A stretch of DNA of 46,715 bases from Methanobacteriota archaeon (lineage in GTDB: Archaea; Thermoplasmatota; Thermoplasmata; SG8-5): assembly GCA_030670795.1 (NCBI GenBank), contig DAOVAY010000001.1, positions 1 through 46,715 of the forward strand, in the 5' to 3' direction. How positions within the stretch are numbered: position 1 is the stretch's first letter; each line of letters opens with the position of its first letter. This document shows positions 713 through 21,451 of this stretch, one piece after another. The translations under genes and the position numbers were made by a program. Below the pieces are notes generated by a model. That model made no database searches and was not told the origin of the DNA. It saw only the letters and a program-made list of their open reading frames with translations.

Positions 713-1897
713 TCAGAGGAATAGCTCACGAAGGTGCTCTGGCATATTACTAAACAGATCTAAATCCCCATCCCAATCGCGTAATTCATCTTTGTAATTT
801 GTTTCGATATTAGTAATCGCATCCTGCATTCTGACATGGAGTCTTTCGGTACCCTTTCCTTCAAGCACGACAGCCAGAAAAATATACTTTCCATGCTCTA
901 TATGAATCTCAAGCTCACCATATTGAAGCCGCTTGAGTGTTTCTGTTTTATCGCTCTCTGTGCGGAAAGAATCTTTGATGAAAATCTGTACTGCAGAGAG
1001 CATTCCACTAAGGATTGTTTTGTCAATCACACCTTTGTCCTTCCCAACATGAGATATCAAAAGACCCGATTCGTAAATCATAAATACCTGACGAACATCG
1101 TAAAGTCTTTCTGGTTCCATAATCTTTCTTCTTTTGGTGAAATAGACAACAGTGGAAAACCCTATAGCCAGGTAGAAATATGCCATCACGAACATGCTTC
1201 CTGGTATGTTTTCGAGCGTTGAAATGTCGTATGCGGTGATGACCGCATTTATCAGGTCTCCTACTGTGAACAGCAATATGCCCACAGTCAGATAAGCCCA
1301 GTAAAAGGCCAGCTTGCCCTTGCGGTAAACATGAAGGAGTAAGAACAACACCAACAGCAGGACCATGTCGAGGTAAGGGTATGCGATGGCAATGAACTTC
1401 AAATACATGGAAGGAAGCACTAGTGAGTTACCGACGGCATTTCCTATCGGTATCAGAAGGGCGAGGGAAATACTGAACATAAAAAGTGTGATAAGTATGA
1501 GTAGCCTGACATTTGCATATTCAGCATAAGAAAAAAGTGTTTTCCAGCATGTGTATATGAGGGGCATGTAGCAGACGAGCCCAAGGATAAGCGAGAGGTA
1601 GAATAATGAGAGCACGAGACCTGTGTAAGACATTATTACCCAGAGAATTTCTGCTAAGAGTAGTAAGCCAGCAAAGATAAAAAAAGAGTTTGCAATAGAC
1701 CTGAAAGCCTCATCTTTATTATTTTTGCGTGCGATTATAACGAGTGCACAAATTGCACTCAATCCAACTATTGTAAGACCATTGATGTACATTCCTGCTT
1801 CATGCGTTGGAAGTAAAATATGTCCGAAGGAAATCAGTATTATAATGGGGGTTAGCATGAAAATCAAACGTGAAAACTGCTTTGTCTTGAACTCCAT
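713..1897 (-). CDS. Polytopic membrane protein (about 7-8 predicted TM helices) with a ~125 aa C-terminal soluble domain ending in a WDGDLD motif
   Basis: 394 aa ORF. The N-terminal 260 aa are strongly hydrophobic. The C-terminal domain (nt ~716-1105) is clearly homologous to an insert in the AAA-TPR protein at 17187-20141 (GLLI..D..I.S.ML.AV..F..DS...Y.E..I..E...DWDGDLD). Confidence 0.6.
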   Translation of the reverse strand: MEFKTKQFSRLIFMLTPIIILISFGHILLPTHEAGMYINGLTIVGLSAICALVIIARKNNKDEAFRSIANSFFIFAGLLLLAEILWVIMSYTGLVLSLFYLSLILGLVCYMPLIYTCWKTLFSYAEYANVRLLILITLFMFSISLALLIPIGNAVGNSLVLPSMYLKFIAIAYPYLDMVLLLVLFLLLHVYRKGKLAFYWAYLTVGILLFTVGDLINAVITAYDISTLENIPGSMFVMAYFYLAIGFSTVVYFTKRRKIMEPERLYDVRQVFMIYESGLLISHVGKDKGVIDKTILSGMLSAVQIFIKDSFRTESDKTETLKRLQYGELEIHIEHGKYIFLAVVLEGKGTERLHVRMQDAITNIETNYKDELRDWDGDLDLFSNMPEHLRELFL

Positions 1898-16343: not shown

Positions 16344-17153
16344 CTATTTTTTCGCCGTATGCCAGCCCCAGACTTGATACAAAGTTGAAAATCCGTTATC
16401 TCGTATGTGGTCAAGAAGCGCATCCAGCAATTTTAATCGCTCTTCATATGGGGTCTTTGGATAAAGACCGGCGGACTGTGCCGGAATGCTGTAAAAATCT
16501 TTTACCTCGTCTCTAGTCATTTCTATGGATGAATCGCCTCCACGAATATCCCCGAATCCAACCTCACCAAGGGTCTCTGGCAGCGTCCGGAGGTCCACGA
16601 TTTTCCGTCCGTAAGGTGCAAACTCCAGCCCGTCTTCGTTGGCTGACATAAATAGGTTTCCGCCGTCAATCTCACCGAACATCCCGATAAGATAGTTCAT
16701 TCCCACAATTCCGCCGGAATCCAATACTTCAAAAGCGGCGTGAAGGGTCCGGTCGAGGTCAGGTATCAGGAAGATACTGGCGTTGTATAATATAACATCA
16801 ACTTTGAAATTTATATGCTCTTCAAGTTTTTCCGCATCACACAAGACGAATTCAGTGTTGGGCACATCACTTGATTTATCCTCCGCCACGCCCAACATCA
16901 TCTCTGAAAAATCTATACCAATGACTTTTCCTTCCTTTCCGACAAGCTTTGCCAAAGCCAAGGTGGAGGCTCCGGTACCGCACCCTATATCGCACACACA
17001 CATCCCTTTTCGGATGCCGCAGACTGTTGCCAGCTCATAGGTGAGATTGTCGAAAAAACCGTATTTTTTTTCGAAGAGTTCATATGATTCCACAGATTTG
17101 TCAAAGTTGGAGCAGATGATTTGTTTTATGAATTCAGGGTCTTTAGTAGTCAT
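16344..17153 (-). CDS. Class I SAM-dependent methyltransferase
   Basis: 269 aa. Motif I VCDIGCGTGASTLALA and an acidic post-I residue (IGIDFS). Confidence 0.85.
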   Translation of the reverse strand: MTTKDPEFIKQIICSNFDKSVESYELFEKKYGFFDNLTYELATVCGIRKGMCVCDIGCGTGASTLALAKLVGKEGKVIGIDFSEMMLGVAEDKSSDVPNTEFVLCDAEKLEEHINFKVDVILYNASIFLIPDLDRTLHAAFEVLDSGGIVGMNYLIGMFGEIDGGNLFMSANEDGLEFAPYGRKIVDLRTLPETLGEVGFGDIRGGDSSIEMTRDEVKDFYSIPAQSAGLYPKTPYEERLKLLDALLDHIRDNGFSTLYQVWGWHTAKK

Positions 17154-17186
17154 TAATTATTCTCCAACTGCTCAAAACGCTTTGGT

Positions 17187-20141
17187 CTATAGTTCCTCCA
17201 GTGCCTTCCTGCACTTCTCGGCCCTGTGCTTCGAGCCCATTTCCTCAAACATCGAGAGGGCCTTTTCAAGGTGCTCCTTGGCCTTGGCGGTTTCTCCTTT
17301 AGTTTTGAAGAGGAGGCCATACTCATAGAAAAGGCGTGCCAGTTCTTCTTTATTATCAAACTCTTTGATAATTGATTTGGCTTTCTCGAACTCTTCAATA
17401 GATTTGTCCCAATCTTTCTTTTCCCGATAGACCATCCCAAGTACACGATGGCTAATGCCCTCTTCCGTATTCGCCCCGATTTCAACTGATGTCTCAATAG
17501 CTTTTTCTGCGTTTTCGAGTGCTCTCTCAACCTCTCCTAAATCCAGATATGTTGTCGCTAGGCCACGGTAGTTATGAACAGAGAGTTTTTTCTCTCCGAT
17601 TTCCAAACAAATTACTAGGCTCTGCTGGTAGTACTTCAAGGATTTATCTGGGTGGTCTTTACCTATATACACCTCGCCGATGTTACTATAGGTGCTAGCC
17701 ATGAGTTGTTTATCGCCCATTTTTTTGCATATATCCCGGCTCTCCTCGTACATCTCTAACGCGCCATCGTAGTCCCCTCTAGCATAAGCAATGGTCCCCA
17801 TGTTGCCATAGGTTTTAGCCATGCTGCGCTTGTCACCTAGATCCATGAATATCCGTAGGCTCTTCTCATATAGCTCCAGCGTGCGATCGTAATCTCCTCT
17901 GATTTCGGCAATTATTCCCATGTTGCCATAGGTCTTAGCCAAGCCTTGCTTGTCACCCAGACCCTTGTAAATCTGGAGACTTTTCTCCCAAAGCTCTAGC
18001 GTGCCATCGTAATCTCCTCTGTCACTGGCAATTATTCCCATGTTGCCATAGGTCTTGGCCATGCTGCGCCTGTCCCCCAGTTCTTCGTATATGCGCAGAC
18101 TCTTCTCGTACAGCTCTAACGCGCCATCATAATCGCCTCTGGTTCTAGCAATTACTCCCATGCTGTTGTAGGTTTTGGCCATGCCTTGCCCGTCCTCTAG
18201 CTCCTCTTTTATCCGCAGGCTCCTCTCATACAACTCCATGGCGCTATCGTAGTCTCCTCGAAGCTCCTTCAATTTCCCATCTTGGAGTAGTACCTTCGCT
18301 TCCAAGGTCTTGTCCCCACAATCCATAGCATATCCTCTGGCCTGTCCGCTCTCCTCAATAGCTATGTCAACCTCGCCAACGAACTCGTGAATCTTCGAGA
18401 GCCCGAGTAAGGCATCTATCTTCACGCACAAATCCTCTGCGACCTCTAGCGCTCTCTCATATGCCTTTATCGCCTCGTCGGCACCGTAATCTGTCCAGGC
18501 GTGGGCACCCACATCTATCAGATACTTCGCTGCCTTTTCGTTAATGCCAGCCTTGTAATAGTGATGTGCTAGCCCGCTCACCACTTCAACTAGATTTTCT
18601 TTGTTCAGTTCCGCTATCGTGTCAGCAACTATCCTATGATATTCCCTTCTCAGCTCCTCAGAGATGCCGTTGTACAGAACCTCCCTTATCTTACCATGGT
18701 CGAACCTATATTTGTCTTTGAGGTAGTGGATAAGTTTATGGGATTTCTCGATATCGCTCAGGTTCTTGAGGAGCGTGAGCCTTCGCATCTCTGTTGTCTT
18801 TTCTAGGACATCAAGTGAGAACTCCTCGCCCACCACGCTCGCGCACTCAAGTATCTCCCTCTGCTCTTTCCTTAATCTGTCTAAGCGTCTCTTAACAACA
18901 TCATAGACCTTCGTCGGTACATCCAATTTATCAATGTCTGTGACCAATCTCCAGATGCCGTCCTCCCTTCGTGCTATAGCTCCATCCTCGACAAGTAGTT
19001 TTAATATCTCTAGTAGGAAGAAAGGAGTGCCTTCTGTCTCCCTGTAAACCTTGTCCAAGAACCCTTTCTCAAAAGATACTTTCCCAAGGGTGGACTCCAT
19101 GACCTTCTCAGTATCGACCTGGCCTAAGCGTTCCAGAATCATTTTCTCTAACAAGTCCTCCCTGTTCATGTTCTGCATGGCGGTTTCAAGCTGGTGAATC
19201 TTTCCATCCTGGGATTCCATTATGTCCTCTGGTCTATATGTTCCGAGTATCAATGTCTTGTTTTCCTTTGTATTCCGTGCAAGGTAATGAAGCAATGCCA
19301 AAGAGCTGGAATCTGCCCACTGCAAGTCATCTAGGAACAGAAGGTTTGGTTTATCGCTAGATAGCCTTTGGAGCCCAAGAAGCACACTGTCGAATAGATT
19401 TTCTTGGTGAATCTTAGGGTCATCAATGAGGAACCTACCATCGTATTTACCGCTTGTCACTAACTTTGACACTATGTTCTCAACACCCTCAACTTCGTCC
19501 AGGTCTCCATCCCAGTCAGTCAGAAGATTGCCATACTCTTCTTGAACCTCTATCAGTTTTTCCTTCATGTCGTTGACCAGAAACTCATTCAAGCTACCCT
19601 TGGTTACAGTGATCAGGTGCAAACCCTCGCATTCTTCGACCAATATTTTATACTCCTTATATCCCAGTATGTTCAGGCCACCAGTTCGATCGATCTGGTC
19701 GATCATCTGCATTGAATCTTGGACAAAAGTGCCTACGGCCTTCAGCATCGAGGCGAATATCTGCGGGTCAAGCTCTAATTCTTCTCTCTCCGACCTTGTA
19801 ATTAGTAAACCAGCATCGTTCATCAGGTAGGTGGAGACAACTAGCGGTGGCGGGTCCCCCGATATCAGATGGAGTAGGCCAGCTTCCCTGAGAGCTGATT
19901 TAATTGGCATCAGCGGTTCCAGACTTTCAGCCAGGCACCAGCCTTGAATTATCTGAACGCCCTTTGATTCTGCAATCTCAATAAGTTCGGATACCAGGCG
20001 GGTTTTGCCTATACCTGCCTCTCCCGAAATGAAGATGGTGGAGCCTTTACTGGAAATGGCATTGTCTAGAGATTGTTTAAGTTTAGATAATTCCACATCC
20101 CTTCCAACAAGGTCTGGGGTTTTGATGGCTAGCTCTTCCAT
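17187..20141 (-). CDS. AAA_16/STAND-like ATPase with a ~170-aa domain inserted between Walker A and Walker B, followed by a long TPR array
   Basis: LVGRDVEL...GEAGIGKTRL (Walker A), then the insert, then LLFLDDLQWAD (Walker B), then about 10 or more TPR units. I prefer ATG 20141 (MEELAIKTPDLVGRD). The ORF track uses a GTG at 20204. Confidence 0.8.
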   Translation of the reverse strand: MEELAIKTPDLVGRDVELSKLKQSLDNAISSKGSTIFISGEAGIGKTRLVSELIEIAESKGVQIIQGWCLAESLEPLMPIKSALREAGLLHLISGDPPPLVVSTYLMNDAGLLITRSEREELELDPQIFASMLKAVGTFVQDSMQMIDQIDRTGGLNILGYKEYKILVEECEGLHLITVTKGSLNEFLVNDMKEKLIEVQEEYGNLLTDWDGDLDEVEGVENIVSKLVTSGKYDGRFLIDDPKIHQENLFDSVLLGLQRLSSDKPNLLFLDDLQWADSSSLALLHYLARNTKENKTLILGTYRPEDIMESQDGKIHQLETAMQNMNREDLLEKMILERLGQVDTEKVMESTLGKVSFEKGFLDKVYRETEGTPFFLLEILKLLVEDGAIARREDGIWRLVTDIDKLDVPTKVYDVVKRRLDRLRKEQREILECASVVGEEFSLDVLEKTTEMRRLTLLKNLSDIEKSHKLIHYLKDKYRFDHGKIREVLYNGISEELRREYHRIVADTIAELNKENLVEVVSGLAHHYYKAGINEKAAKYLIDVGAHAWTDYGADEAIKAYERALEVAEDLCVKIDALLGLSKIHEFVGEVDIAIEESGQARGYAMDCGDKTLEAKVLLQDGKLKELRGDYDSAMELYERSLRIKEELEDGQGMAKTYNSMGVIARTRGDYDGALELYEKSLRIYEELGDRRSMAKTYGNMGIIASDRGDYDGTLELWEKSLQIYKGLGDKQGLAKTYGNMGIIAEIRGDYDRTLELYEKSLRIFMDLGDKRSMAKTYGNMGTIAYARGDYDGALEMYEESRDICKKMGDKQLMASTYSNIGEVYIGKDHPDKSLKYYQQSLVICLEIGEKKLSVHNYRGLATTYLDLGEVERALENAEKAIETSVEIGANTEEGISHRVLGMVYREKKDWDKSIEEFEKAKSIIKEFDNKEELARLFYEYGLLFKTKGETAKAKEHLEKALSMFEEMGSKHRAEKCRKALEEL
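17700..18290 (-). repeat. Tandem ~120-bp coding repeats (about 5 units) encoding near-identical 40-aa TPR pairs
   Basis: The 120-nt period is visible directly. For example, attattcccatgttgccataggtcttagcc (17911-17940) is matched at 18031-18060 with one mismatch (A/G at 17936/18056). The protein repeat is AKTYGNMGIIA..RGDYDG.LELYEKSLRI...LGD. Confidence 0.8.
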
Positions 20142-20209
20142 TAACAAAAGCAATGCGATTGAGATAGAAAAGGTTTTGGAGCGAAGAATAAAACCCCACT
20201 CCACTCGAT

Positions 20210-21451
20210 TTATCTATCTGTTTGAGGAGAGACAGTATCAGGCGCGATTACTAGGTTATCATCCAACAGCCTGTCTTCGAATTCACTCACATCTTCGCCC
20301 CTTTTCATCAGTGTATAAATGATGCCGGTATTTCGAATGCTACCGATAAACTGGAGTCCCAATATTTTGTTGTCTTTCAAAAGGAGCTTTTTGTGGTAGT
20401 GTGGGGTGGGACGCGATATTGTCTTGCACTTGCCGATGACTTGTGAAGTGGAGCCTACAGCCACTACCGGCGTTTCGAAAATATCCAGCACATTCACCAC
20501 CTCCGCACCCGCATATGTCGCGGGCGCCCCGGCCATGTTCAGGCCTGCAATTCTGCCCTGCTCTATTGCGTTCGGCCAGATGGCAAAGGAGCCCTGTTGC
20601 CCCATGATTTGCTCACGGACTTCCACAATGTCGCCGGCGGCGTAGATGTCTTTCTTGTTCGTCTGCATTGTCGAATCAACTATTATCCCCTTGTTGATTT
20701 CAATGCCAGCGTCTTGTACGATGCCGGTGTTCGGCACAACACCTATCGCAATCACGACCATGTCACATCTTAGTTTCTTCTTTCCGAGAGATACGCTTTC
20801 CACGGTTTTATTGCCGTTAATACTCTTTACGGCATCGTTCAGCACGAGTTTTATGCCGTGTCCTTTGAGGATATTTGCAACCTTTCGGGACATGTCTGGG
20901 TCCAGCATTCTTGACAGGATATCAGGAAGTAACTCCACGATGGTAACCTCAATTCCTCTTTTCCTCAACATCACTGCTGTTTCGATGCCCATGAATCCCC
21001 CGCCCACGACCACGACCTTGTTGACACCCAGTTCCACATGCGCCAATATGTCGAGAGCAGAATCCAGCGTGCCCATAACGTGCACACCCTTTAATTCCAA
21101 CCCAGCTATTTCTTTCGGAATGAGGGGGCTCGCACCGGCTGCGATGAGTAACTTGTCAAATTTGATGTTATCCCCTTTCGCAAGCTTGATTTCCTTTTTG
21201 CGCGGTAATATCCGGATGGCCTCAGTGTTCTTCATGAACTTTGCATTAAGGCGATGATAGAACTTCTTGTCGAAACGAAGTATCGTCTGTTCGTCTGCTT
21301 CGCCGGAGAGCATGTTGGGAAGAGAGCATGGCGAGTATGCTGGGTATTTCTCACGCGAGATTATGGTGATGTCGGATGTTTCGTCAATCTTCCGTATGGC
21401 CTGAAGTGCACTCACCCCGGCACCACCGTTCCCGATTATTACGTAATGCAA
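20210..21451 (-). CDS. FAD/NAD(P)-dependent pyridine-nucleotide-disulfide-family oxidoreductase (NADH oxidase / CoA-disulfide-reductase-like)
   Basis: MHYVIIGNGGAGVSA (FAD GxGxxG), single Cys in YSPCSLP, second Rossmann motif VVVVGGGFMGIE, and AAGD. Confidence 0.85.
   Translation of the reverse strand: MHYVIIGNGGAGVSALQAIRKIDETSDITIISREKYPAYSPCSLPNMLSGEADEQTILRFDKKFYHRLNAKFMKNTEAIRILPRKKEIKLAKGDNIKFDKLLIAAGASPLIPKEIAGLELKGVHVMGTLDSALDILAHVELGVNKVVVVGGGFMGIETAVMLRKRGIEVTIVELLPDILSRMLDPDMSRKVANILKGHGIKLVLNDAVKSINGNKTVESVSLGKKKLRCDMVVIAIGVVPNTGIVQDAGIEINKGIIVDSTMQTNKKDIYAAGDIVEVREQIMGQQGSFAIWPNAIEQGRIAGLNMAGAPATYAGAEVVNVLDIFETPVVAVGSTSQVIGKCKTISRPTPHYHKKLLLKDNKILGLQFIGSIRNTGIIYTLMKRGEDVSEFEDRLLDDNLVIAPDTVSPQTDR

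Follow-up and report, generated by a model that had tools for sequence, protein, structure and literature searches.

What is a segment of about 130 residues doing between the Walker A and Walker B motifs of an ATPase, and why does the same segment recur at the end of a membrane protein 16 kb away? The question is raised by a 46,715-nucleotide stretch of an uncultured Thermoplasmatota archaeon of the SG8-5 lineage (contig DAOVAY010000001.1, positions 1 to 46,715; hereafter the window), which encodes the ATPase, P0001, and the membrane protein, P0002, on its minus strand. We find that the segment is a domain with a predicted longin fold that recurs throughout the source genome and that tracks Rab-like small GTPases across the phylum almost genome for genome. 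Our reading, which we hold to be about 60% probable, is that the domain would serve as a longin-type docking or regulatory platform for Rab-like GTPases, binding them and thereby coupling the ATPase to a GTPase network. The features of P0001 and P0002 on which the analysis rests are as follows.

17190..20141, minus strand: P0001 gene; the product (984 residues) is an AAA_16 (STAND-like) ATPase that bears a longin-like insert and ends in a TPR array (open reading frame (ORF) list, Pfam, paralogue alignment of the start).
20001..20024, minus strand: Walker A/P-loop GEAGIGKT, residues 40-47 of P0001 (sequence reading; conserved in 12 paralogues).
19455..19850, minus strand: longin-like domain inserted in the nucleoside triphosphatase (NTPase) core, residues 98-229 of P0001 (AlphaFold2 (AF2), Foldseek, homology to the P0002 tail, absence in the paralogue on contig C11).
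19311..19343, minus strand: Walker B LLFLDDLQWAD, residues 267-277 of P0001 (sequence reading; predicted strand 266-271).
17190..18509, minus strand: TPR array, about residues 545-984 of P0001 (Pfam TPR_12, TPR_1, TPR_10, TPR_MalT).
716..1897, minus strand: P0002 gene, a 394-residue polytopic membrane protein with a longin-like cytoplasmic tail (ORF list; full-length orthologues).
1139..1867, minus strand: eight hydrophobic (transmembrane) segments, residues 11-253 of P0002, followed by a basic stretch KRRK (Kyte-Doolittle scan).
716..1105, minus strand: longin-like tail domain, residues 265-394 of P0002 (BLASTP, profile, own hidden Markov model (HMM)).

BLASTP aligned residues 104-215 of P0001 with residues 271-380 of P0002 at 32% identity over 112 residues (E 2e-12). 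A profile built from the genome's own copies of the domain retrieved P0002 from a library of 1.84 billion representative proteins at E 2.3e-39, and our own HMM matched the P0002 tail at E 2e-44. These values bear out the homology that an earlier note on this DNA had proposed between the central ~130 residues of P0001 and the C-terminal domain of P0002, with the two segments lying where the note had placed them (insert, nucleotides 19455-19850; tail, nucleotides 716-1105). The segment is an autonomous domain shared by the two proteins. P0002 as a whole had no Pfam or NCBIfam match; full-length orthologues with 46-47% identity are found in other Thermoplasmatota metagenome-assembled genomes (MAGs).

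No curated model in Pfam, NCBIfam or PADLOC covers the domain, in agreement with the earlier statement that its family could not be named, and sequence searches of the PDB with a single sequence or a profile returned noise only (de novo helical bundles and AP-4 sigma, phmmer E 0.6). AF2 modelling from an alignment of 19 copies of the domain, all from this genome, gave a model with a predicted local distance difference test score (pLDDT) of 82. Its topology is beta-beta-alpha-beta-beta-beta-alpha-alpha, with two C-terminal helices and no N-terminal helix (DSSP elements E4-12, E17-22, H30-51, E61-65, E68-75, E78-85, H90-112, H118-133). This same order of elements, likewise with two C-terminal helices and no N-terminal helix, is the longin topology (PMC10933270). 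When the model was compared with the PDB using Foldseek, a structural search that the earlier note had called for, the best 50 matches were all longin or roadblock proteins (E about 1e-4, TM-scores 0.5-0.64), among them LAMTOR subunits, AP sigma, Bet5/Trs23, Sec22b, VAMP7, Mon1-Ccz1 and dynein roadblock. Solved longin domains (AP-2 sigma, Bet5, Sec22b, VAMP7 and Mon1-Ccz1) were matched at E 1e-4 to 1e-3 with TM-scores of 0.57-0.64. Topology and structural matches together turn what had been a guess at a roadblock/longin-like module into a predicted longin fold.

Robl_LC7 (PF03259) was matched by a few of the domain copies over the whole length of the model at sub-threshold scores, the best being 15-17 bits against a gathering cut-off of 23, whereas the genome's two canonical roadblock genes scored 34-44 bits. 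Membership in Pfam Longin or Robl_LC7 was dropped, as the profile matches were absent or below cut-off. Because profile comparison with the canonical roadblock proteins was empty, we name the domain a longin-fold member of a separate, uncurated family. Its most conserved residues lie in helix alpha-1 and a W-x-G turn which, by analogy with known longin/roadblock-GTPase complexes, would form a platform surface rather than a pocket.

The ATPase that hosts the insert belongs to a recognizable class. P0001 scored 75.4 bits with Pfam AAA_16 (cut-off 32.6) and contains a Walker A motif of the form GxxxxGK[ST] and a Walker B motif of the form hhhhDD, as expected of AAA_16/STAND proteins. Both motifs are intact in its paralogues, which supports the integrity of the NTPase, and Walker B follows the conserved pattern hhhh[DE][DE]L[HQ]W.D. 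In an AF2 model of residues 1-450 (pLDDT 73) Walker A is predicted to sit between a strand at residues 34-39 and a helix at residues 46-59, and the NTPase is followed by helices and a beta-hairpin (residues 317-434) that lead into the TPR repeats. AF2 and Pfam thus give the STAND layout of NTPase, helical/winged-helix arm and repeat sensor. TPR_12 matched at E 1.5e-70, TPR_MalT and TPR_12 matches span residues 554-983, and the NCBIfam TOMM kinase/cyclase and AfsR regions also match. A Pfam scan detected neither a helix-turn-helix (HTH) domain nor an enzymatic effector such as a nuclease, protease or TIR domain, as had been read from the sequence earlier. The stop codon occupies 17187-17189 on the minus strand. 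We placed the start at the ATG at 20141 and not at the upstream GTG at 20204 because 11 paralogues, aligned from the same genome, share the opening motif MEEL..QP.L.GR.

Two comparisons bear on whether the domain interrupts this NTPase. The AAA_16 match extends over residues 11-294 of P0001 yet covers just model positions 2-162 (161 positions), and P0001 therefore holds ~123 extra residues. A paralogue on contig C11 (20439-23033, minus strand, 864 residues) is the same AAA_16-TPR ATPase and can be aligned on both sides of the insert site; because a low-complexity linker of ~55 residues occupies exactly that site instead of the longin-like domain, it provides a natural empty-site comparator. 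On these alignments residues 98-229 of P0001 are a true insertion. The AF2 model places it after strand 2 and a short helix (residues 78-86); downstream come a helix at residues 246-263 and then the Walker B strand at residues 266-271. The large separation of Walker A and Walker B described earlier therefore stands, with the figure revised from ~230 to about 220 residues. Insert-less relatives of the P0001 NTPase are more widespread across the phylum than insert-bearing ones, and a tree of 46 domain copies neither excludes nor establishes a single origin of the ATPase inserts.

The source genome (G000), a 1.26-Mb MAG that is ~84% complete, holds 21 copies of the domain. Thirteen lie in paralogous AAA_16-insert-TPR proteins of ~1000 residues, with tandem arrays on contigs C17, C69 and C82. 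Two polytopic membrane proteins, P0002 and one encoded on C34, each end in a cytoplasmic copy. One follows the single transmembrane helix of a 2217-residue surface protein, one is part of a zinc-ribbon membrane protein and one belongs to a DUF835-domain-TPR protein; among the last three are small proteins encoded on C28 and C65, as well as a weak match in a 441-residue ORF on C65. In the DUF835 protein (C17:22260-23969, plus strand, 569 residues) the longin-like domain stands between a proline-rich linker, which follows the inactive KaiC-like DUF835, and a TPR array; this is a further cytoplasmic scaffold architecture for the domain.

Beyond this genome, the profile search of the representative protein library, which carries no taxonomy, returned 6242 clusters (50% identity) at E <= 1e-3. 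Many of these clusters have the length (~1000 residues) and the domain position (residues ~95-230) of the insert-bearing ATPases, which therefore form a large family in their own right. Genome searches covered the host's own lineage, and there the named relatives are all uncultured Thermoplasmata/Thermoplasmatota MAGs, such as 'Candidatus Proteinoplasmatales archaeon SG8-5'. The closest ATPase-type relatives, found with a sub-alignment of the domain copies and sampled as 80 loci, likewise all come from Thermoplasmatota MAGs.

This abundance bears on the idea, put forward in the earlier note, that P0001 and P0002 are a dedicated, two-component-like pair. That idea is not supported. The domain is present 21 times in the genome, and P0002 orthologues have no conserved partner, ATPase and GTPase genes included, beside them, their neighbours being unrelated housekeeping genes. 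In the domain tree the P0001 insert groups with other ATPase inserts (support 100/99) and the P0002 tail branches apart, so that the tree does not pair the two window copies. The likeness to a two-component system also fails, as neither protein has a histidine-kinase or receiver domain (no Pfam match to HisKA/HATPase_c or REC at E <= 1).

A likely third party had been missed. In 301 Thermoplasmatota genomes drawn across the phylum, the domain was seen in 42 genomes and Rab-like GTPases in 42, and 41 genomes have both (Fisher p 2e-48, uncorrected for phylogeny). GTPases were called with PF00071 at E <= 1e-25; 14 control genomes gave no match at this cut-off. Copy numbers of domain and GTPase are correlated as well (Spearman 0.78, for counts among the matches listed). 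The two are also often neighbours: of the 150 best-listed GTPase genes, 10 have one of the 150 best-listed domain copies within 1.5 kb, where 1.1 would be expected. The first hint had come from a relative's locus (L021), in which an ATPase array is followed by two small GTPase genes. The source genome itself has six Ras-family GTPase genes, two each on C20 and C32 and one each on C28 and C34. They are Rab-like, since their best PDB relatives are a Thorarchaeota Rab (E 4e-30), Rab8A and Rab1. Two of the six adjoin domain-bearing genes: on C34 a GTPase gene lies 72 bp downstream of the membrane-longin gene, and on C28 a GTPase gene converges on a small longin-like gene beside it. From co-occurrence and adjacency together, a Rab-like small GTPase is the probable missing partner.

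We scanned 14 fetched regions and L021, 15 loci in all, with our own HMMs, and this confirmed the GTPase-domain gene pairs. At four of these loci a protein with two tandem copies of the domain at its C-terminus adjoins a Rab-like GTPase gene (L028:3553-6279, L029:4959-6617, L030:4199-6100 and L031:4711-6483). These proteins look like built-in pseudo-dimers, and their position beside GTPase genes fits a dimeric platform. An ATPase-type gene is adjacent to a GTPase gene, or in an operon-like arrangement with one, at L021, L025, L026, L034, L074, L118 and L120. The GTPases at L025 (3733-4764, minus strand) and L026 (2843-3868, plus strand), whose genes are divergent neighbours of ATPase-type genes in two other families, have an N-terminal TPR domain of ~165 residues fused to the G domain (TPR-Rab fusion).

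Adjacency to GTPase genes is above expectation for the whole domain family and at chance level for the ATPase type. Among the 80 loci of the closest ATPase-type relatives, only three have a GTPase gene within 5 kb, against 2-3 expected, and the claim that ATPase-type genes typically adjoin GTPase genes was dropped. For this type the phyletic pattern is the stronger evidence. Insert-bearing ATPases were found in 14 genomes, every one of them Rab-positive (14/14), and these make up 14 of the 26 genomes with at least two GTPases versus none of the 16 with a single GTPase (p 2e-4). A further 26 genomes have insert-less relatives only, and these have neither Rab-like GTPases nor the domain. In single-Rab lineages with small genomes the domain is found in ORFs of 3900-7500 residues (G246:C3 and C4, G261:C4, G028:C6) that probably encode giant surface proteins, and no ATPase-type carrier turned up in the genomes concerned.

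Longin and roadblock dimers serve elsewhere as platforms for Rab, Rag and MglA GTPases. By extension, we propose that in P0001 such a platform has been built into a STAND-like ATPase, in the connection from strand 2 to the Walker B strand, where binding at the insert would likely be coupled to the ATP state and the oligomerization of the ATPase-TPR scaffold. The partner of the insert could be a GTPase or a second longin domain, the latter because platforms of this kind are normally dimeric. Membrane proteins such as P0002 would present the same platform on the cytoplasmic side and engage the same pool of GTPases at the membrane. We infer GTPase binding, the direction of regulation (as GTPase-activating protein, guanine nucleotide exchange factor or effector) and the coupling to ATP hydrolysis. 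A wider version, in which Thermoplasmatota possess a Rab-longin network separate from that of Asgard archaea and eukaryotes, with the insert-bearing ATPase as an ATP-gated regulator or effector hub and the membrane and surface proteins as receptors, is more tentative and is less likely than not.

Several observations weigh against the GTPase-platform reading. The Foldseek TM-scores are moderate. None of 19 members of the domain family matched Pfam Longin, Clat_adaptor_s, Sybindin or Sedlin at E <= 10, no copy reached the Robl_LC7 gathering cut-off, and hhalign against the genome's canonical roadblock proteins gave a probability of 1.8%, although this is a weak test in which the template alignment contained two sequences. 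In the P0001 model the junctions have pLDDT < 50 (residues 94-98 and 235-247), a confidence too low to place the insert against the nucleotide site. The co-occurrence statistics ignore phylogeny, the ATPase-type neighbourhoods are at chance level as described above, and neither of the window genes has a GTPase neighbour.

The likeliest alternative is direct pairing of longin domains without GTPases, in which the ATPase insert would heterodimerize with P0002-like tails and so tether or activate the scaffold at the membrane; this corresponds to the membrane sensor and NTPase switch of the earlier note. As a rule, domains of the longin and roadblock types exist as obligate homo- or heterodimers (PMC10933270), one genome places the domain on both membrane proteins and ATPases, and proteins with tandem double domains exist. 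We nevertheless consider it improbable, as there is no conserved neighbourhood of ATPase-type with membrane-type genes, the window copies are unpaired in the tree, and co-occurrence with Rab-like GTPases in 41 of 42 genomes would go unexplained. Such pairing is compatible with the GTPase-platform reading.

Less probable still is that the expanded STAND-TPR family consists of NLR/Avs-like immune sensors that detect invaders, with the insert as an adaptor or signalling module. The combination of a STAND-like NTPase with TPRs, the 13 paralogues and tandem arrays (C17, C69, C82) in a genome of 1.26 Mb, and weak PADLOC matches to a TPR model and to mad8 would fit this. Against it, no nuclease, protease, TIR or similar effector domain was detected by Pfam, the genes lie beside housekeeping genes and not in defence islands, the PADLOC NTPase match reached just E 1e-5, and the insert follows Rab-like GTPases, not mobile elements; the co-occurrence with the GTPases would again go unexplained. 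We give equally little credence to a sensor of small molecules or peptides, a profilin/GAF-like alpha/beta module gating the ATPase and reporting to membrane proteins independently of GTPases, since for all the resemblance of the roadblock/longin core to other small ligand-binding alpha/beta folds and the sensor-like architectures (polytopic membrane protein, DUF835-domain-TPR and zinc-ribbon proteins), the top structural matches are all protein-protein platforms and no ligand binders, the conserved helix alpha-1 and W-x-G turn read by analogy as a platform surface, and the GTPase co-occurrence is left unexplained.

How, then, does the GTPase-platform reading compare with known systems? A longin or roadblock platform paired with a Rab, Arf or Rag GTPase is regarded as a hallmark both of membrane traffic in eukaryotes and of the Asgard archaea. 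The domain described here shares with the eukaryotic and Asgard longin platforms (TRAPP Bet5/Trs23, Mon1-Ccz1, DENN, AP sigma, Sec22b/VAMP7) its topology and best Foldseek matches, and has Rab-like GTPases as candidate partners. It differs in having no detectable profile relationship to the Pfam longin-type families, in the group where it has been found (Thermoplasmatota, as against Asgard archaea and eukaryotes), and in being built into an ATPase core or joined to membrane proteins. Domain genes in Thermoplasmatota also often adjoin a GTPase gene, in contrast to the Asgard strain MK-D1, where adjacency of GTPase and regulator is not general (PMC10933270).

In the bacterial MglB-MglA system and the Streptomyces conservon (CvnA-D), a roadblock/LC7 protein works with a Ras-like GTPase and a membrane sensor. 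The likeness lies in the genetic linkage of a prokaryotic small GTPase to a roadblock-superfamily partner and membrane proteins. The differences are that the domain scores below the Robl_LC7 cut-off (best 17 versus 23 bits), lacks an N-terminal helix and is unconnected to the genome's canonical roadblock proteins by hhalign (the 1.8% given above), and that the GTPases are Rab-like, not MglA-like. A passage of PMC4316618 attributes to Koonin and Aravind (2000) the proposal that the roadblock superfamily regulates NTPases.

As an ATPase, P0001 resembles the AAA_16-TPR STAND ATPases of the MalT/AfsR/TOMM-cyclase type in its above-cut-off AAA_16 match, its TPR_MalT and TOMM/AfsR regions, its Walker A and Walker B motifs and its helical/winged-helix region after the NTPase. 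It differs from them in that no effector or DNA-binding domain was detected in it, and in that its NTPase is interrupted by a 130-residue folded domain which is absent from the Pfam model and from the insert-less relatives in the phylum. Foldseek of the P0001 N-terminal module gave RuvBL1/RuvBL2 (Pontin/Reptin) as top matches (E 1e-9, TM-score ~0.3, root-mean-square deviation ~15 Å). In these AAA+ ATPases a domain inserted between Walker A and Walker B, DII, binds partners and modulates ATPase activity. RuvBL1/2 thus share with P0001 a folded domain between the Walker motifs; DII is an OB-fold and not a longin fold, and the proteins belong to another ATPase clade. Homology to RuvBL1/2 was rejected, and because the TM-score is only ~0.3 we treat the resemblance as an architectural analogy.

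In type, then, the proposed system would be a known one, a roadblock/longin platform with a small GTPase, built on a separate and uncurated domain family. Full-text literature searches found no published description of the domain or of a Rab-longin system in Thermoplasmatota, the nearest report being of single Rab-like sequences in a Thermoplasmatales archaeon and Aciduliprofundum (PMC4915359). Our data suggest that a GTPase-linked signalling network, so far undescribed, exists beyond eukaryotes and the Asgard archaea. A large family of the same fold in another archaeal phylum, absent from the curated libraries searched and following Rab-like GTPases so closely, bears on the age and spread of such switch-platform systems. 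It is unusual for a STAND-like ATPase to carry such a platform within its nucleotide-binding core, an architecture that could show how two nucleotide switches are coupled; if P0001 is indeed an ATP-gated hub for Rab-like GTPases, an ATP switch and a GTP switch would be in direct crosstalk, an arrangement with no described counterpart. Because domain and GTPase genes often adjoin, cognate GTPase-regulator pairs can be chosen from the genome for in vitro tests.

Some minor observations concern the window and the GTPases of the source genome. Two ORFs overlap the P0001 gene in other frames (17153-17530, minus strand, 125 residues; 20005-20322, plus strand, 105 residues); judging by their arginine/serine-rich, low-complexity translations, they are probably not genes. 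Three of the six GTPases have a helical C-terminal extension of ~110-130 residues that matches no family (C34:3663-4580, C32:11449-12369 and C20:79-921, all minus strand). On C20 (79-2191, minus strand) the gene for a 241-residue KaiC/RecA-like ATPase is followed immediately by two Rab-like GTPase genes in tandem.

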